NCBI RefSeq assembly: GCF_003334385.1
Contig: NZ_QOWN01000056.1
Source of the DNA: Escherichia coli
GTDB lineage: Bacteria > Pseudomonadota > Gammaproteobacteria > Enterobacterales > Enterobacteriaceae
Length of the DNA stretch: 28,549 nt
Strand: one strand, 5' to 3'
The stretch's first letter is position 1, and each line of letters opens with the position of its first letter. The notes below the pieces were generated by a model. It did not search any database. It saw nothing but the letters and a program-made list of their open reading frames with translations, and was not told where the DNA came from. The position numbers were made by a program, and so were the translations under genes. Of this stretch, positions 8,759-25,628 are shown piece by piece.

Positions 8759-9314
8759 TCTCCGCTCCCCCGGTGACGTTTGTTGCCGGGTTTTCTCGTT
8801 TTTGGTCACTTACTCATCAACTCATTTCATTTGTTATATGAATGTTTCTTACCACCCTCACGCGACAAATATCATCACAGTTAATATGTCATACAATTTA
8901 TGTTGCAACGCAAACGTTTCCCTATTTTCATAAACCGTATTTTATCGCTATGAAAAAGAAATTATCGCCATGATTAACTAAAAGTATTGATTTTTTCAGT
9001 TCAACCTACATATATTGCGCGCCCCGGAAGAAGTCAGATGTCGTTTAATGGGCAAATATTGCCCTTAAATTCTCTTTTACTTTTGATTTACAGAGTAAAG
9101 CGTTGGGATAATCTATCTTCCAAGTAGATTATTGTATTTGAGATCAAGATCACTGATAGATACATAACTTGTGTGTATCTTTCCGCCCTCAAATTATTAC
9201 GGCGGTAAATGATTAAGCCATCGCCGATAGACAGATTTCATTTTTACGGTCAGGCACCTTCCCGGGCTGAACTGGCTAAAAGCTGAATTATTTGCATTCC
9301 TCCAGGAGAAATAG

Positions 9315-10604
9315 ATGGAAACGACTCAAACCAGCACGATTGCGTCGAAAGACTCTCGTAGTGCCTGGCGCAAGACAGACACCATGTGGATGCTGGGCCT
9401 TTACGGCACGGCAATCGGCGCGGGCGTGCTGTTCCTGCCAATCAACGCCGGTGTTGGCGGTATGATCCCGCTGATCATCATGGCTATCCTTGCGTTCCCG
9501 ATGACGTTTTTTGCTCACCGCGGCCTGACTCGCTTCGTACTGTCTGGTAAAAACCCGGGCGAAGACATCACCGAGGTTGTAGAAGAACACTTTGGTATTG
9601 GCGCAGGTAAACTGATTACCCTGCTCTACTTCTTCGCTATCTACCCGATCCTGCTGGTTTATAGCGTGGCAATCACCAATACCGTTGAAAGCTTCATGTC
9701 TCACCAGCTGGGTATGACGCCACCGCCGCGTGCGATTCTGTCGCTGATCCTGATCGTGGGTATGATGACCATCGTTCGCTTCGGTGAGCAGATGATCGTT
9801 AAAGCGATGAGTATTCTGGTATTCCCGTTTGTTGGCGTACTGATGCTGCTGGCTCTGTACCTGATCCCGCAGTGGAACGGCGCTGCACTGGAAACGCTGT
9901 CTCTGGACACTGCATCTGCAACCGGAAACGGTCTGTGGATGACCCTGTGGCTGGCAATTCCGGTAATGGTGTTCTCGTTCAACCACTCTCCGATCATCTC
10001 TTCTTTCGCCGTTGCGAAGCGTGAAGAGTACGGCGATATGGCAGAACAGAAATGCTCGAAGATCCTGGCATTCGCACACATCATGATGGTGCTGACCGTA
10101 ATGTTCTTCGTCTTCAGCTGTGTACTGAGCCTGACTCCGGCAGACCTGGCTGCGGCTAAAGAGCAGAACATCTCGATTCTGTCTTACCTGGCTAACCACT
10201 TTAACGCACCGGTTATCGCGTGGATGGCTCCGATTATCGCGATTATCGCTATCACCAAATCCTTCCTCGGTCACTACCTGGGCGCACGTGAAGGCTTCAA
10301 CGGTATGGTGATTAAATCTCTGCGTGGTAAAGGTAAGTCTATCGAAATCAACAAGCTGAACCGTATCACTGCGCTGTTCATGCTGGTAACGACCTGGATT
10401 GTTGCCACCCTGAACCCGAGCATCCTGGGTATGATTGAAACCCTGGGCGGTCCAATCATCGCGATGATCCTGTTCCTGATGCCGATGTACGCAATTCAGA
10501 AAGTACCGGCAATGCGTAAGTACAGCGGTCACATCAGCAACGTATTCGTTGTCGTGATGGGTCTGATTGCAATCTCCGCAATCTTCTACTCTCTGTTCAG
10601 CTAA
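9315..10604 (+). CDS. sdaC: Serine:H+ symporter SdaC (429 aa)
   Basis: [49 protein letters not shown]... (HAAAP-family membrane transporter); RBS aggag at 9304..9308. Confidence 0.93.
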
Positions 10605-10612
10605 GTCCTTTC

Positions 10613-10632
10613 GCGCCGCTTTCGGGCGGCGC
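10613..10632 (+). terminator. GC-rich hairpin (gcgccgc / gcggcgc) between sdaC and sdaB; possible attenuator or mRNA processing structure
   Basis: 7-bp perfect stem with 6-nt loop, followed by ttcctccgtttt. Confidence 0.35.
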
Positions 10633-10661
10633 TTCCTCCGTTTTAACGCGATGTATTTCCT

Positions 10662-12029
10662 ATGATTAGCGTATTCGATATTTTCAAAATCGGCATTGGC
10701 CCTTCCAGTTCTCATACCGTTGGACCAATGAAAGCGGGTAAACAATTTACCGACGATCTGATTGCCCGTAACCTGCTTAAAGACGTGACCCGCGTGGTGG
10801 TTGACGTGTACGGCTCGCTCTCTCTGACCGGTAAAGGCCACCACACTGATATCGCCATTATTATGGGCCTGGCGGGTAACCTGCCGGATACCGTGGATAT
10901 CGATTCCATCCCCAGTTTTATTCAGGATGTGAATACTCATGGTCGCCTGATGCTGGCAAACGGTCAGCATGAAGTGGAGTTCCCGGTTGATCAGTGCATG
11001 AACTTCCACGCCGACAACCTTTCTCTGCATGAAAACGGTATGCGCATTACCGCGCTGGCGGGCGATAAAGTCGTTTACAGCCAGACTTACTACTCTATTG
11101 GCGGTGGCTTTATCGTTGATGAAGAGCATTTTGGCCAGCAGGATAGCGCACCGGTTGAAGTTCCTTATCCGTACAGTTCAGCAGCCGATCTGCAAAAACA
11201 TTGTCAGGAAACCGGGCTGTCACTCTCTGGCCTGATGATGAAAAACGAGCTGGCGCTGCACAGCAAAGAAGAGCTGGAACAGCACCTGGCGAACGTCTGG
11301 GAAGTCATGCGCGGCGGTATTGAGCGCGGTATTTCCACCGAAGGCGTGTTGCCTGGCAAACTGCGCGTTCCACGCCGTGCTGCGGCACTACGCCGGATGC
11401 TGGTCAGCCAGGATAAAACCACCACTGACCCGATGGCGGTTGTTGACTGGATCAACATGTTTGCACTGGCAGTGAACGAAGAGAACGCTGCTGGCGGTCG
11501 CGTGGTGACTGCGCCGACTAACGGTGCGTGCGGGATTATCCCGGCAGTTCTGGCGTACTACGACAAGTTTATCCGCGAAGTGAACGCTAACTCACTGGCT
11601 CGTTACCTGCTGGTAGCCAGCGCCATTGGTTCTCTTTATAAGATGAACGCGTCGATTTCTGGTGCTGAAGTGGGTTGCCAGGGTGAAGTTGGCGTGGCGT
11701 GCTCAATGGCGGCGGCTGGTCTGGCAGAACTATTAGGCGCAAGCCCGGCGCAGGTGTGCATCGCGGCGGAAATCGCCATGGAGCACAACCTCGGTCTGAC
11801 GTGTGACCCGGTCGCCGGACAGGTACAGGTGCCATGCATCGAGCGTAACGCCATTGCGGCAGTAAAAGCGGTGAACGCCGCACGTATGGCGCTGCGCCGT
11901 ACCAGCGAGCCGCGCGTCTGCCTCGATAAAGTTATCGAAACCATGTACGAAACAGGTAAAGATATGAACGCCAAGTACCGCGAAACCTCTCGCGGCGGCC
12001 TGGCAATGAAGATCGTTGCCTGCGATTAA
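10662..12029 (+). CDS. sdaB: L-serine dehydratase 2, SdaB (455 aa)
   Basis: ORF MISVFDIFKIGIGPSSSHTVGPMKAGKQFTDDL... (iron-sulfur L-serine dehydratase signature N-terminus). Confidence 0.93.
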   Translation: MISVFDIFKIGIGPSSSHTVGPMKAGKQFTDDLIARNLLKDVTRVVVDVYGSLSLTGKGHHTDIAIIMGLAGNLPDTVDIDSIPSFIQDVNTHGRLMLANGQHEVEFPVDQCMNFHADNLSLHENGMRITALAGDKVVYSQTYYSIGGGFIVDEEHFGQQDSAPVEVPYPYSSAADLQKHCQETGLSLSGLMMKNELALHSKEELEQHLANVWEVMRGGIERGISTEGVLPGKLRVPRRAAALRRMLVSQDKTTTDPMAVVDWINMFALAVNEENAAGGRVVTAPTNGACGIIPAVLAYYDKFIREVNANSLARYLLVASAIGSLYKMNASISGAEVGCQGEVGVACSMAAAGLAELLGASPAQVCIAAEIAMEHNLGLTCDPVAGQVQVPCIERNAIAAVKAVNAARMALRRTSEPRVCLDKVIETMYETGKDMNAKYRETSRGGLAMKIVACD

Positions 12030-12896
<867 letters not shown>

Positions 12897-16669: not shown

Positions 16670-18445
16670 ATGAAAAAAATCAGCTTACCGAAAATTGGTA
16701 TCCGCCCGGTTATTGACGGTCGTCGCATGGGTGTTCGTGAGTCGCTTGAAGAACAAACAATGAATATGGCGAAAGCTACGGCCGCACTGCTGACCGAGAA
16801 ACTGCGCCATGCCTGCGGAGCTGCCGTCGAGTGTGTCATTTCCGATACCTGTATCGCGGGTATGGCTGAAGCCGCTGCTTGCGAAGAAAAATTCAGCAGT
16901 CAGAATGTAGGCCTCACCATTACGGTAACGCCTTGCTGGTGCTATGGCAGTGAAACCATCGACATGGATCCAACCCGCCCGAAGGCCATTTGGGGCTTTA
17001 ACGGCACTGAACGCCCCGGCGCTGTTTACCTGGCAGCGGCTCTGGCAGCTCACAGCCAGAAAGGCATCCCAGCATTCTCCATTTACGGTCATGACGTTCA
17101 GGATGCCGATGACACATCGATTCCTGCCGATGTTGAAGAAAAACTGCTGCGCTTTGCCCGCGCCGGTTTGGCCGTCGCCAGCATGAAAGGTAAAAGCTAT
17201 CTGTCGCTGGGCGGCGTTTCGATGGGTATCGCCGGTTCCATTGTTGATCACAACTTCTTTGAATCCTGGCTGGGAATGAAAGTCCAGGCGGTGGATATGA
17301 CCGAACTGCGTCGCCGTATCGATCAGAAGATTTACGACGAAGCCGAATTGGAAATGGCACTGGCCTGGGCTGATAAAAACTTCCGCTATGGCGAAGATGA
17401 AAATAACAAACAGTATCAACGTAATGCCGAGCAAAGCCGCGCAGTTCTGCGCGAAAGTTTACTGATGGCGATGTGTATCCGCGACATGATGCAAGGCAAC
17501 AGCAAACTGGCCGATATTGGTCGCGTGGAAGAATCACTTGGCTACAACGCCATCGCTGCGGGCTTCCAGGGGCAACGTCACTGGACCGATCAATATCCCA
17601 ATGGTGACACCGCCGAAGCGATCCTCAACAGTTCATTTGACTGGAATGGCGTGCGCGAACCCTTTGTCGTGGCGACCGAAAACGACAGTCTTAACGGCGT
17701 GGCAATGCTAATGGGTCACCAGCTCACCGGCACCGCTCAGGTATTTGCCGATGTGCGTACCTACTGGTCACCAGAAGCAATTGAGCGTGTAACGGGGCAT
17801 AAACTGGATGGACTGGCAGAACACGGCATCATCCATTTGATCAACTCCGGTTCTGCTGCGCTGGACGGTTCCTGTAAACAACGCGACAGCGAAGGTAACC
17901 CGACGATGAAGCCACACTGGGAAATCTCTCAGCAAGAGGCTGACGCTTGCCTCGCCGCTACCGAATGGTGCCCGGCGATCCACGAATACTTCCGTGGCGG
18001 CGGTTACTCTTCCCGCTTCCTTACCGAAGGCGGCGTCCCGTTCACCATGACTCGTGTCAACATCATCAAAGGCCTGGGACCGGTACTGCAAATCGCGGAA
18101 GGCTGGAGCGTGGAATTGCCGAAGGATGTGCATGACATCCTCAACAAACGCACCAACTCAACCTGGCCAACCACCTGGTTTGCACCGCGCCTCACCGGTA
18201 AAGGGCCGTTTACGGATGTGTACTCGGTAATGGCGAACTGGGGCGCTAACCATGGGGTTCTGACCATCGGCCACGTTGGCGCAGACTTTATCACTCTCGC
18301 CTCCATGCTGCGTATCCCGGTATGTATGCACAACGTTGAAGAGACCAAAGTGTATCGTCCTTCTGCCTGGGCTGCGCACGGCATGGATATTGAAGGCCAG
18401 GATTACCGCGCTTGCCAGAACTACGGTCCGTTGTACAAGCGTTAA
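16670..18445 (+). CDS. fucI: L-fucose isomerase FucI (591 aa)
   Basis: [44 protein letters not shown]...; stop taa 18443..18445. Confidence 0.93.
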
Positions 18446-18553
18446 TACATTACTCCCTGATGTGATGCCCGGTCGCTCCGGCTACCGGGCCTGAACAAGC
18501 AAGAGTGGTTAGCCGGATAAGCAATGTTATCCGGCTATATTGCAGGAGCGATT

Positions 18554-19972
18554 ATGAAACAAGAAGTTATCCTGGTACTCGACTGTGGCGCGACCAATGT
18601 CAGGGCCATCGCGGTTAATCGGCAGGGCAAAATTGTTGCCCGCGCCTCAACGCCTAATGCCAGCGATATCGCGATGGAAAACAACACCTGGCACCAGTGG
18701 TCTTTAGACGCCATTTTGCAACGCTTTGCTGATTGCTGTCGGCAAATCAATAGTGAACTGACTGAATGCCACATCCGCGGTATCGCCGTCACCACCTTTG
18801 GTGTGGATGGCGCTCTGGTAGATAAGCAAGGCAATCTGCTCTATCCGATTATTAGCTGGAAATGTCCGCGAACAGCAGCGGTTATGGACAATATTGAACG
18901 GTTAATCTCCGCACAGCGGTTGCAGGCTATTTCTGGCGTCGGAGCCTTTAGTTTCAATACGTTATATAAGTTGGTGTGGTTGAAAGAAAATCATCCACAA
19001 CTGCTGGAACGCGCGCACGCCTGGCTCTTTATTTCGTCGCTGATTAACCACCGTTTAACCGGCGAATTCACTACTGATATCACGATGGCCGGAACCAGCC
19101 AGATGCTGGATATCCAGCAACGCGATTTCAGTCCGCAAATTTTACAAGCCACCGGTATTCCACGCCGACTCTTCCCTCGTCTGGTGGAAGCGGGTGAACA
19201 GATTGGTACGCTACAGAACAGCGCCGCAGCAATGCTCGGCTTACCCGTTGGCATACCGGTGATTTCCGCAGGTCACGATACCCAGTTCGCCCTTTTTGGC
19301 GCTGGTGCTGAACAAAATGAACCCGTGCTCTCTTCCGGTACATGGGAAATTTTAATGGTTCGCAGCGCCCAGGTTGATACTTCGCTGTTAAGTCAGTACG
19401 CCGGTTCCACCTGCGAACTGGATAGCCAGGCAGGGTTGTATAACCCAGGTATGCAATGGCTGGCATCCGGCGTGCTGGAATGGGTGAGAAAACTGTTCTG
19501 GACGGCTGAAACACCCTGGCAAATGTTGATTGAAGAAGCTCGTCTGATCGCGCCTGGCGCGGATGGCGTAAAAATGCAGTGTGATTTATTGTCGTGTCAG
19601 AACGCTGGCTGGCAAGGAGTGACGCTTAATACCACGCGGGGGCATTTCTATCGCGCGGCGCTGGAAGGGTTAACTGCGCAATTACAGCGCAATCTACAGA
19701 TGCTGGAAAAAATCGGGCACTTTAAGGCCTCTGAATTATTGTTAGTCGGTGGAGGAAGTCGCAACACATTGTGGAATCAGATTAAAGCCAATATGCTTGA
19801 TATTCCGGTAAAAGTTCTCGACGACGCCGAAACGACCGTCGCAGGAGCTGCGCTGTTCGGTTGGTATGGCGTAGGGGAATTTAACAGCCCGGAAGAAGCC
19901 CGCGCACAGATTCATTATCAGTACCGTTATTTCTACCCGCAAACTGAACCTGAATTTATAGAGGAAGTGTGA
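18554..19972 (+). CDS. fucK: L-fuculokinase FucK (472 aa from this ATG; an in-frame ATG at 18524 would give 482 aa)
   Basis: ORF ...[32 protein letters not shown]... (FGGY carbohydrate kinase). aggag RBS at 18544..18548 sits 5 nt before ATG 18554; the upstream ATG 18524 lies in the loop of a hairpin. Confidence 0.88.
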
Positions 19973-21228: not shown

Positions 21229-22329
21229 TTATCGCTCGTCGCGACGACCACCCACCGCAGCCCAGATGCGGCGGACGTGCACCGTCACTTCTTCGCGATC
21301 GTGATACAACTGCCGCGCCTGAATCTGAGCATTTATGCCATGTTCATCAAGCTGTGCCTGAATATACGCCAGATTGTGTGACACTTCTTCGTAGCGTTTT
21401 TTCATCGGCAGTTTGAGGTTGAAAATGGTTTCACGGCACCAGCCATTAACCAGCCACTGCGCCATCAATGCCGCAACTTTCGCCGGTTTTTCAACCATAT
21501 CGCATACCATCCAGGAGATATTGCTGCGCGTCGGACGGAATTTGAAACCGTCTTCCCGCAGCCACGTCACCTGTCCGGTATCCATCAGACTTTGCGCCAT
21601 CGGGCCGTTGTCGACGGAATAAACCCACATGTTGCGCTTCACCAGTTGGTAGGTCCAGCCGCCAGGGCAAGCGCCTAAATCCACCGCCCACATCCCGTTC
21701 GCCAGGCGTTCATCCCACTCATCCGCAGGAATAAACACATGAAATGCCTCTTCCAGTTTGAGCGTGGAACGACTCGGCGCATCTGCCGGAAATTTCAGGC
21801 GCGGAATGCCCATATAGAACGGCGAATTATTGTTGCTGTATGAGTAACCGGTATAGCAGCAGCCTGGTGCAATAAAGAATACATGCACAACCGGACGCTT
21901 CGGCGTTTCATAGTTCGCCAGCACCCCGGCATCGCGCAAGGCAGCGCGTAGCGGAACAGTAAATTTACGGCAGAATTTCAGTAACTCTTTGCTTTCGTTG
22001 GTATCGGCAACTTCAACACGCAGTTCACCGCCCTTCTCTACTACGCCCTGTAACATGCCGACAATGGGGGTAATACGATCTTCTGGCGGCAAATGCTGCA
22101 GGAGTTCCCCCACCACAAACCACTGGCGGGCAAAAATTAATGAACTGAACGGCAGCTCACGGATTAACTTATCGCCATCATCAGGTTGATAACATTCATA
22201 AATGACATAACCCGCATTCTCTTTCACGCGGGCAAAACCGAAAATTTCCCGCTGGCCGGCTTTATCGGTAATTTCTGCGGCGCACTCTTTTTCAAAGCCC
22301 GGACGGCACAGCAATACAACCTTATTCAT
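21229..22329 (-). CDS. rlmM: 23S rRNA 2'-O-ribose C2498 methyltransferase RlmM (YgdE; 366 aa)
   Basis: [48 protein letters not shown]... (THUMP-like N-terminus plus SAM-dependent methyltransferase domain); ATG 22327..22329 overlaps the ygdD 3' end by 8 nt. Confidence 0.9.
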
Positions 22330-22717
22330 GACTTACGCCCTTGCGCTTTAAACGGATAGCACCAACTAACATTAACGCCCAGCCCGCGAGGAAGCTCACG
22401 CCGCCAACCGGAGTGACAAACGCCCACAAACGCAGATGGGACAGCGCCAGGCAATAAAGGCTGCCGCTGAACAACACCGTGCCTAACGCGAGGAAAACGC
22501 TACTCCAGTAAAACCAGATACTGATGCGACGCTGCATTGCCACCGCCAGACCTAAGATCGCCAGCGTATGAAACGCCTGGTATTCGAGGCCGGTCTGGAT
22601 CCAGCCCATCTCAACGGCCCCCATGGTTTTACTTAACACATGCGCGCCAAAAGCGCCCAGAGCCACAAAAATGAAGCCGCTAATGGCGGCGAAAATCAGC
22701 ATAAAACGGCTGGTCAT
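22322..22717 (-). CDS. ygdD: Inner-membrane protein YgdD (DUF423; 131 aa)
   Basis: [33 protein letters not shown]..., four predicted hydrophobic segments. Confidence 0.85.
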
Positions 22718-22735
22718 GGTCGTACCCTACGTAAA

Positions 22736-23653
22736 TTATTGTTCATAACGAAAGCGGAATTTTTCTTGTTCAGCAGCGGCTTTCGCCAGGATCCATTGGC
22801 GAAAGGCGGCTATTTTACCCAGTTCTGCCTGACTGTCATGACAAACCAGATAAAAAGCATTTTTACTGACCAGAACATCATTAAACGGGCAAACAAGACG
22901 TCCGGCCTCGATTTCAGATTGCGCCATCACGTTATTTGCCAGCGCCACTCCCTGCCCGTGGATAGCCGCTTGCAGCACCATGGCGCTATGGCTAAAAATT
23001 GGCCCTTGCTGAACGTTGATATGATTTAACCCCAACTGTCGGGTATATGTCTGCCAGTCACGGCGCGAAGCATCATGTAATAACGTATGTTTAGCCAGAT
23101 CTTCCGGTGTCTTCAAGGGTTTTTCGCCAGTCAGCAGTAGCGGCGAACACACCGGCAATAAATATTCGGCGTACAGTTTTTCCACCCGTAGCCCCGGCCA
23201 GTTGCCCCGACCATAAAATATCGCCACATCAACATCATCCGCCAGCTTATCTTCCTGACGATCAACCGCCTGGATTCGAACGTCAATTCCCGGATAAGCT
23301 GAATTAAAGCTGGAAAGTCGCGGAACCAACCAATGAATGGCGAAACTGGGGAGTAAACTGACCGTCAACGCCCCCTTGGCGCTACGGGCCTGGAGTTTAC
23401 GCGTCGCTTCGGTTAATTGCGAAAATATCTCTTTGATATCGAGGAAATAGCTTTGCCCTTCCTCGGTCAGCAGGAGTGAACGATTACGGCGGCGGAACAG
23501 TTTTAGCCCCAAAAAATCCTCAAGAGACTTGATTTGATGACTTACTGCGGCTTGGGTCACAAAAAGCTCTTCTGCTGCGCGAGTGAAACTTAAATGGCGT
23601 GCTGCGGCATCAAAAACTCGTAAGGCATTTAGCGGTGGTAATCGTTTAGACAT
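22736..23653 (-). CDS. gcvA: LysR-family glycine-cleavage regulator GcvA (305 aa)
   Basis: ORF MSKRLPPLNALRVFDAAARHLSFTRAAEELFVTQAAVSHQIKSLEDFLG... (LysR HTH). Confidence 0.93.
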   Translation of the reverse strand: MSKRLPPLNALRVFDAAARHLSFTRAAEELFVTQAAVSHQIKSLEDFLGLKLFRRRNRSLLLTEEGQSYFLDIKEIFSQLTEATRKLQARSAKGALTVSLLPSFAIHWLVPRLSSFNSAYPGIDVRIQAVDRQEDKLADDVDVAIFYGRGNWPGLRVEKLYAEYLLPVCSPLLLTGEKPLKTPEDLAKHTLLHDASRRDWQTYTRQLGLNHINVQQGPIFSHSAMVLQAAIHGQGVALANNVMAQSEIEAGRLVCPFNDVLVSKNAFYLVCHDSQAELGKIAAFRQWILAKAAAEQEKFRFRYEQ

Positions 23654-23781
23654 GGCTATTAAACTTTGATGTTAAATGAATTTAACAATTAGATCACACT
23701 ATGTAAACTATTAGTTTTTTTAATCTGAGCCATTATAAATTGTCCGTTGAGCTTCTACCAGCAAATACCTATAGTGGCGGC

Positions 23782-23987
23782 ACTTCCTGAGCCGGAACGA
23801 AAAGTTTTATCGGAATGCGTGTTCTGGTGAACTTTTGGCTTACGGTTGTGATGTTGTGTTGTTGTGTTTGCAATTGGTCTGCGATTCAGACCATGGTAGC
23901 AAAGCTACCTTTTTTCACTTCCTGTACATTTACCCTGTCTGTCCATAGTGATTAATGTAGCACCGCCTAATTGCGGTGCTTTTTTTT
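23782..23987 (+). ncRNA. gcvB: GcvB small RNA (~206 nt), divergent from gcvA
   Basis: Sequence ACTTCCTGAGCCGGAACGAAAAGTTTTATCGGAATGCGTGTTCTGGTGAACTTTTGGCTTACGGTTGTGATGTTGTGTTGTTGTGTTTGCAATTGG... including the G/U-rich seed region, ending in hairpin gcaccgc-ctaatt-gcggtgc plus a T7-8 run; -10 tatagt at 23770..23775. Confidence 0.88.
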
Positions 23988-24003
23988 ACCTTGCGATCGC
24001 GAA

Positions 24004-24231
24004 TTACTGATCCAGTTCGACCATCTCTTTCACGTCAGTACGGTTGATCTGCTGTTTGTTGCCATTAGCGTCTTTATACGAAATCATACCGGTATCGTTA
24101 TCAGTCTGTGGTTTGCCGTCAGAGACGATGGTACGTCCGTCATTGGTGTGCATCACATAGTTCGAACCGGAACAGGCGCTCAGGGCAAAAGTCAGCATAC
24201 AGGCAGAAATAATTGCGGCAGTCTTTTTCAT
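24004..24231 (-). CDS. ygdI: Small lipoprotein YgdI (DUF903; 75 aa)
   Basis: ORF (M)[28 protein letters not shown]... with signal peptide and lipobox LSAC; RBS aaggag 6 nt upstream of the second ATG. Confidence 0.82.
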
Positions 24232-24422
24232 CATCTTCTCCTTAAAGCGATTAATAAATCTTAATAGTATTGATTAACAGGCTAAAATTAACGCCTAACA
24301 CTATTCAGCATATGTTACTTACGCGGCTTCGCCAGGATATCCAGATAATTCTGATGGTTAGCACTCTCCTTGTATCAAAGTGAATTTTGCGTCACGATCG
24401 GTGCATCAAGCCGAGGAGTACC

Positions 24423-25628
24423 ATGAACGTTTTTAATCCCGCGCAGTTTCGCGCCCAGTTTCCCGCACTACAGGATGCGGGCGTCTATCTCGACAGCGCC
24501 GCGACCGCGCTTAAACCTGAAGCCGTGGTTGAAGCCACCCAACAGTTTTACAGTCTGAGCGCCGGAAACGTCCATCGCAGCCAGTTTGCCGAAGCCCAAC
24601 GCCTGACCGCGCGTTATGAAGCTGCACGAGAGAAAGTGGCGCAATTACTGAATGCACCGGATGATAAAACTATCGTCTGGACGCGCGGCACCACTGAATC
24701 CATCAACATGGTGGCACAATGCTATGCGCGTCCGCGTCTGCAACCGGGCGATGAGATTATTGTCAGCGTGGCAGAACACCACGCCAACCTCGTCCCCTGG
24801 CTGATGGTCGCCCAACAAACTGGAGCCAAAGTGGTGAAATTGCCGCTTAATGCGCAGCGACTGCCGGATGTCGATTTGTTGCCAGAACTGATTACTCCCC
24901 GTAGTCGGATTCTGGCGTTGGGTCAGATGTCGAACGTTACTGGCGGTTGCCCGGATCTGGCGCGAGCGATTACCTTTGCTCATTCAGCCGGGATGGTGGT
25001 GATGGTTGATGGTGCTCAGGGGGCAGTGCATTTCCCCGCGGATGTTCAGCAACTGGATATTGATTTCTATGCTTTTTCAGGTCACAAACTGTATGGCCCG
25101 ACAGGTATCGGCGTGCTGTATGGTAAATCAGAACTGCTGGAGGCGATGTCGCCCTGGCTGGGCGGCGGCAAAATGGTTCACGAAGTGAGTTTTGACGGCT
25201 TCACGACTCAATCTGCGCCGTGGAAACTGGAAGCTGGAACGCCAAATGTCGCTGGTGTCATAGGATTAAGCGCGGCGCTGGAATGGCTGGCAGATTACGA
25301 TATCAACCAGGCCGAAAGCTGGAGCCGTAGCTTAGCAACGCTGGCGGAAGATGCGCTGGCGAAACGTCCCGGCTTTCGTTCATTCCGCTGCCAGGATTCC
25401 AGCCTGCTGGCCTTTGATTTTGCTGGCGTTCATCATAGCGATATGGTGACGCTGCTGGCGGAGTACGGTATTGCCCTGCGGGCCGGGCAGCATTGCGCTC
25501 AGCCGCTACTGGCAGAATTAGGCGTAACCGGCACACTGCGCGCCTCTTTTGCGCCATATAATACAAAGAGTGATGTGGATGCGCTGGTGAATGCCGTTGA
25601 CCGCGCGCTGGAATTATTGGTGGATTAA
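24423..25628 (+). CDS. csdA: Cysteine sulfinate desulfinase / cysteine desulfurase CsdA (401 aa)
   Basis: [42 protein letters not shown]... with PLP motif [16 protein letters not shown]; RBS gaggag at 24412..24417; the longer ORF from 24387 is likely a spurious extension. Confidence 0.9.

Follow-up and report, generated by a model that had tools for sequence, protein, structure and literature searches.

The 613-aa open frame that runs antisense to sdaC and the 5' part of sdaB in Escherichia coli is almost certainly a non-coding frame -1 shadow ORF, a by-product of the codon preference of these two genes. Judging from the sequence, the frame is probably neither translated nor functional. Long frame -1 ORFs that result from codon bias are an already known phenomenon, and the outcome of the present analysis is mainly negative: in frame -1, the length of an open frame by itself says little about antisense coding. 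A first-pass annotation of the locus had likewise interpreted the frame as a by-product of codon bias on the sense strand, and this reading is borne out by the register of the two strands, the complete lack of TTA, CTA and TCA codons in sdaC, and the interruption of the frame in relatives.

Position of the antisense frame and its register with sdaC and sdaB

The window analyzed here is a 28,549-nt stretch of the E. coli chromosome (contig NZ_QOWN01000056.1) that extends from gudD to mltA. Every one of the 5,426 complete E. coli genomes matched this region, and the segment 9288-11129 is identical to complement(2928202..2930043) of K-12 MG1655. The first-pass annotation had reported a minus-strand open frame of about 1.8 kb over sdaC, the spacer and the 5' part of sdaB; the ORF listing and the translation confirm this frame, with an ATG at 11129 and a TAA at 9290-9288 (Table 1). 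The ORF spans the whole of sdaC, the spacer and codons 1-156 of sdaB, and is embedded in a longer stop-free frame bounded by a sense-strand TTA at 9288 and a TCA at 11178. A GC-rich hairpin is located inside the sdaC-sdaB spacer, at 10613-10632.

Table 1. Coordinates of the antisense frame and of the sense-strand features that it overlaps
Feature	Position in the window	Strand	Basis
Antisense ORF, 613 aa	9288..11129	-	ORF listing, translation, comparison with K-12 MG1655
Full stop-free antisense frame of 629 codons, sharing the register of the sense codons	9291..11177	-	
sdaC, real gene, HAAAP serine/threonine permease, 429 codons	9315..10604	+	Annotation
sdaC-sdaB spacer, 57 nt (19 in-register triplets)	10605..10661		
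sdaB, real gene, L-serine ammonia-lyase II	10662..12029	+	Annotation
Sense Ser codon TCA (TGA on the minus strand), closing the antisense frame at its 5' side	11178..11180	+	

Positions 9288, 9315 and 10662 are each divisible by three, so that the antisense codons are exactly in register with the codons of both sdaC and sdaB, the arrangement denoted frame -1. In frame -1, every antisense codon corresponds to a single sense codon read as its reverse complement, and because of this register, antisense stops (TAA, TAG, TGA) can arise only from the sense Leu codons TTA and CTA or from the Ser codon TCA. None of the three occurs among the 49 Leu and 30 Ser codons of sdaC, where Leu is encoded by CTG (45), CTT (2) and CTC (2). 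They are also missing from the spacer, which, consisting of whole in-register triplets, places sdaB in the same frame as sdaC. In sdaB, there are seven such codons, all beyond codon 172, and the first antisense stop contributed by this gene is the TCA at 11178.

Among the genes of the window, sdaC is the codon-bias outlier: CTG accounts for 92% of its Leu codons, compared with 17-75% in most other genes, and its CAI, calculated with the Sharp and Li weights, is 0.62, equal to that of rpoB, against 0.24-0.48 for the other genes. Under the proposed explanation, translational selection for major codons removes TTA, CTA and TCA from sdaC, and the antisense strand thereby stays open. Three coincidences lengthen the frame: a spacer length that is a multiple of three, with no stop-yielding triplet; an sdaB start that falls in the sdaC frame; and a run of 172 codons at the beginning of sdaB that are likewise free of TTA, CTA and TCA. 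Under the whole-gene rates of sdaB itself, the last of these has a probability of 0.05, and the same 172 codons are stop-free in 28 of 66 orthologs.

Chance expectation for an antisense run of this length

Synonymous recoding of the sdaC-sdaB locus was simulated under three codon-usage sets. With the average usage of the other 24 genes in the window, sdaC has a probability of about 6e-7 of containing no antisense stop, and a run of at least 629 codons appeared in none of 200,000 simulations (P ~0). With codon frequencies taken from highly expressed E. coli genes, the respective probabilities are 0.11 and 0.13, and with the pooled usage of sdaC and sdaB themselves, both are 0.02.

As an empirical background, we used 250 kb of K-12, consisting of the rpoBC region and four 50-kb regions chosen in advance. 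Unannotated antisense runs in the rpoBC region reach 1,002 codons opposite rpoB (CAI 0.63), 846 and 530 opposite rpoC, 536 opposite purH, 439 opposite rplK-rplA (across two genes) and 412 opposite tufB, and each of the 14 long unannotated antisense runs in the 250 kb shares its register with the sense codons. The 629-codon run at sdaC-sdaB is in the upper tail genome-wide, yet is expected where the sense gene has a CAI near 0.6, in agreement with Mir et al. 2012 (PMC3454372). The first-pass view that the length is unusual thus holds for the genome at large, where the largest antisense run in the four pre-chosen regions is no longer than 403 codons, but does not hold once the codon bias of sdaC is taken into account (P = 0.13).

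Interruption of the frame in Enterobacteriaceae

Antisense stops in close relatives had been set beforehand as a test, and its outcome is the one predicted for a by-product. Escherichia whittamii, Escherichia sp. MOD1-EC7003 and a third Escherichia representative, the nearest species (DNA 95-97% identical, SdaC 99-100% identical), carry one to three antisense stops each; the frame is interrupted in Salmonella subspecies; and among 80 species representatives of Enterobacteriaceae, 58 have one or more stops within sdaC, at 40 distinct codon positions. The longest antisense runs at the locus vary from 104 to 924 codons across these 80 species. Runs of at least 600 codons are present in five of them, Huaxiibacter, Enterobacter mori, Pseudenterobacter, a Pluralibacter MAG and Enterobacter asburiae, which are scattered and in which the boundaries of the runs differ. 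The reading frame of sdaC is shared by sdaB in only 35 of 77 species, with spacers of 45 to 172 nt. Across the orthologs, CAI calculated with Leu and Ser codons excluded correlates in the expected direction with the number of antisense stops, but too weakly to count as evidence (Spearman -0.18, P = 0.10).

Variation within Escherichia

One alternative is a young, E. coli-specific antisense overlapping gene that opened recently in the E. coli lineage and has low-level transcription and translation, along the lines of pop/ompA, nog1/citC and ano of EHEC or olg1/olg2 of Pseudomonas aeruginosa. We consider such a gene very improbable. It could draw on the position of the ORF in the upper tail of lengths in the genome, on published arguments for the expression of some long antisense ORFs (PMC7457138, PMC8850804), and on the state of the frame within the species: apart from its identity in K-12, the frame is open in seven of eight diverse E. 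coli strains sampled across the identity range, and the ATG is kept in all eight. This retention carries little weight because the divergence is only about 1%. Moreover, stop alleles segregate in the species. The interrupted strain has TCT>TCA at 10590, an allele that recurs in 71 of the 5,426 complete genomes, from varied hosts, and TCA at 10317 occurs in one more; for these two alleles tested, at least 72 of the 5,426 genomes are interrupted and the frame is open in at least 98%. Together with the stops in the nearest Escherichia species, these alleles argue against a young gene.

The substitution pattern bears on the same question. Among 11 Escherichia sequences, 150 sense-synonymous variants were identified: 136 replace the antisense residue, 7 leave it unaltered and 7 create stops, where mutational opportunity predicts 84.7%, 8.4% and 6.9%, respectively. 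Stop-creating variants were expected 10.3 times (P = 0.42), neither this deviation nor the other one (P = 0.11) is significant, and antisense-silent changes are not enriched, which counts against a young gene. Because the variant classes match opportunity, the antisense dN/dS-like ratio is 1.9 and SdaC is nearly unchanged (0-1 residue changes in the same comparisons), we see no indication in these alignments that purifying selection acts on the antisense frame.

Another possibility is that antisense stops are depleted at this locus by selection beyond codon bias, with no specific protein involved. Mir et al. 2012 (PMC3454372) found that long alternative-frame ORFs exceed the codon-usage prediction and proposed a general "stop-codon depletion"; in line with this proposal, codons 1-172 of sdaB are, with all species pooled, somewhat poorer in stop-generating codons (3.3% of Leu, 5.4% of Ser) than the remainder of the gene (5.5% and 9.4%). 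The same paper itself makes an exception for frame -1, with reference to Merino 1994 and Silke 1997: only for long ORFs in this frame does the bias of highly expressed genes suffice as an explanation. At the present locus, pooled usage in the orthologs (TTA 1.1%, CTA 0.6%, TCA 2.8%) equals the frequencies of highly expressed genes, and the stop-creating variants counted above are close to opportunity. We therefore hold this kind of selection to be extremely unlikely here, and the codon preference of sdaC and sdaB remains the preferred explanation for the open frame.

Predicted product and database matches

The 613-aa product mirrors the sense gene codon by codon. Its most notable residues are Arg (11.3%), Gln (8.8%), His (7.8%) and Asp (7.0%), in all of which it is rich, and these residues are traceable to sense codons: all 54 Gln come from CTG, the 48 His from ATG and GTG, 39 of the 43 Asp from ATC, and Arg from CCG, GCG and TCT. 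The hydropathy is inverted as well, with GRAVY of -0.94 for the antisense product against +0.81 for SdaC and a per-codon correlation between the two of -0.68. The first-pass description of the product as low-complexity and His/Arg/Gln/Asp-rich is therefore accurate with respect to residue enrichment, but not with respect to low complexity in the strict sense, the product being a codon mirror instead. The further statement that it contains no recognizable domain agrees with our searches, in which Pfam yielded no significant match (best E = 0.35) and NCBIfam yielded none.

In a search of 5.8 billion proteins, only four clusters matched, all of 414-422 aa and covering only the part of the product antisense to sdaC. 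Two of these, the only named relatives in the database, are "hypothetical protein" calls in older annotations, CKO_04153 of Citrobacter koseri and ESA_00508 of Cronobacter sakazakii, which show 71% and 54% identity, respectively, to the E. coli product over the sdaC-antisense part. Both are 418-422 aa long, end at the sdaC boundary without reaching into sdaB, and contain no Pfam domain; CKO_04153, the one of the two calls that was checked, lies opposite a 429-aa sdaC adjoining sdaB and is almost coextensive with it. The two calls are probable mis-annotations that mirror sdaC. The full 613-aa protein has never been called, despite thousands of E. coli genomes.

The CAI of the antisense ORF is 0.31, in the range of average genes. 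We considered this value as an argument against coding and dropped it, as codon usage at the level of an average gene leaves translation possible; the CAI is average because a major codon, when reverse-complemented, often yields another major codon. More telling are the rare Arg codons, which are in excess: AGA, AGG, CGA and CGG make up 45 of the 69 Arg codons (65%), which counts against a young gene.

Expression signals and reports of antisense expression

A consensus scan of the minus strand from 9000 to 12100, from which weak or alternative signals may escape, found no sigma-70-like promoter site. The same applies to the 20 nt before the ATG, GCGCTATCCTGCTGGCCAAA, where no Shine-Dalgarno-like element was found with an AGGAGG-like motif, a search that weak or alternative signals may also escape; the earlier remark that the ORF has no good RBS agrees with this result. 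The sole promoter-like site in the promoter and terminator scan is that of sdaC, on the plus strand, and the minus strand has two weak terminator-like sites, fewer than in shuffled sequence. Literature searches turned up neither an antisense gene nor an antisense RNA for sdaC/sdaB, and the 18 supplementary files of an E. coli overlapping-gene screen, the tables of which may use other identifiers, do not contain sdaC, sdaB, b2796, b2797 or the product name. For a young gene, the missing promoter-like and Shine-Dalgarno sequences and the absence of the locus from this screen are further counterevidence, the last of these being weak.

Antisense transcription is widespread in E. coli. A non-coding antisense RNA could thus regulate sdaCB from the minus strand, with the open frame being incidental. 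The widespread transcription discussed in PMC7457138 is compatible with such an RNA, and we found nothing in its favor that is specific to sdaCB; Rfam searches of both strands of 8700-12200 gave no match at E<=1, and the minus strand shows no promoter-like site. An antisense RNA would also leave the absence of stops unexplained, whereas the register with the sense codons explains it fully. An RNA of this kind is, in our estimate, highly unlikely.

Similarly slim is the chance of a very young, E. coli-restricted proto-gene, in which pervasive antisense transcription of sdaCB would be accompanied by occasional translation, and the product would not yet be shaped by selection. If such a proto-gene existed, it would make a hydrophilic, His/Arg/Gln-rich protein of up to 613 aa, among the longest translated antisense overlapping ORFs in E. 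coli. Translation of the frame in any form would make it an unusually long antisense overlapping gene across two genes, for which the present evidence gives no support. Given the preferred reading as a frame -1 shadow ORF, the sdaC-sdaB locus can leave the lists of candidate overlapping genes.

Comparison with known antisense ORFs

Antisense overlapping genes with experimental support include pop/ompA (PMC7103648), ano (PMC5960689) and three OLGs of EHEC (PMC9927249), as well as olg1/olg2 of P. aeruginosa (PMC8850804). Like them, the sdaC-sdaB frame is a long ORF that lies within annotated genes on their antisense strand, and at 1.8 kb it exceeds the 1,536 nt of olg2. The supported OLGs are characterized by RNA-seq and Ribo-seq signal and by promoter and RBS elements, and olg1/olg2 are additionally under purifying selection, whereas in the sdaC-sdaB ORF, our tests found none of these features that can be read at the sequence level.

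The resemblance to frame -1 shadow ORFs (PMC3454372) extends to several features: the frame is in register with the sense codons, is open because the sense gene has no TTA, CTA or TCA, and is not conserved; the sense gene has a high CAI; and the product mirrors the sense codons. The same pattern is seen in the K-12 runs opposite rpoB, rpoC, tufB and rplK-rplA. Two differences can be noted. The sense gene at the present locus encodes a transporter, whereas the other runs are opposite genes of the translation and transcription machinery; and the sdaC-sdaB frame covers two genes and the spacer between them, owing to the chance agreement in frame between sdaC and sdaB, as is likewise the case for the 439-codon rplK-rplA run in K-12.

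Codon usage in sdaC and sdaB

The codon bias of sdaC (9315-10604) is very strong for an amino-acid transporter gene, with a CAI of 0.62 that equals the level of rpoB (0.63) and far exceeds those of the neighboring genes. Stops in the in-register antisense frame arise solely from the sense codons TTA, CTA and TCA. In the sdaB orthologs of 66 species, pooled from the 80 loci of Enterobacteriaceae species representatives, TTA and CTA together account for 3.3% of the Leu codons within codons 1-172 compared to 5.5% within codons 173-455, and TCA for 5.4% and 9.4% of the Ser codons, respectively. These codons are rarer in the 5' segment whether or not the ortholog has a frame in common with sdaC. 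Two public database entries, one from C. koseri and one from Cronobacter sakazakii, mirror sdaC on the opposite strand (see the table) and are probably mis-annotations.

Spacer, possible disruption of sdaC, and gudX

The spacer between sdaC and sdaB is highly variable across the Enterobacteriaceae, ranging from 45 to 172 nt in the same 80 loci (after sdaC, at locus positions of about 4291-4460), with 63 nt being the most frequent length. In the window, it contains a GC-rich hairpin that may act between the two genes as a weak terminator or attenuator. The 76-nt context of this hairpin folds no better than shuffled sequences (z = -0.94), and the hairpin is not among the sites reported by the terminator scan.

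Comparison of complete E. coli genomes suggests that sdaC is naturally disrupted in a few strains. In strain ETEC1732 (NZ_CP122823.1), the match falls into two pieces separated by about 1.2 kb of DNA with an IS5-like ISKpn26 transposase, and the annotation divides sdaC into two parts. In strain GMM060 (NZ_CM183920.1), there are two matching places, the best of which covers only 44% of the query.

Compared with strain J31, gudX in the window is split into two ORFs (493..1500 and 1464..1847) because of a single missing A. This allele is present in only 4 of the 5,426 complete E. coli genomes, and gudX is here either a frameshifted pseudogene or the product of a sequencing error.

Coordinates of the features discussed
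Feature	Location	Strand	Description
gudX	window, about 492-1847	minus	one A missing at 1576-1577 relative to strain J31
Hairpin	window, 10613-10644, sdaC-sdaB spacer		GC-rich, 8 bp; GCGCCGCU-UUCG-GGCGGCGC, then UUCCUCCGUUUU
C. koseri "hypothetical protein"	CP000822.1 locus, 2501-3769		antisense mirror of sdaC
C. sakazakii "hypothetical protein" ESA_00508			antisense mirror of sdaC
rpoB antisense frame	K-12 region 4160001-4210000, 22298-25303	minus	1,002 codons, in-register, unannotated
rpoC antisense frame	same region, 27039-29576	minus	846 codons, in-register, unannotated
rplK-rplA antisense frame	same region, 18396-19712	minus	439 codons, in-register, unannotated

Comparison with other antisense frames

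Long antisense frames are also found elsewhere in K-12: those opposite rpoB, rpoC and rplK-rplA are comparable in length to, or longer than, the frame antisense to sdaC-sdaB.
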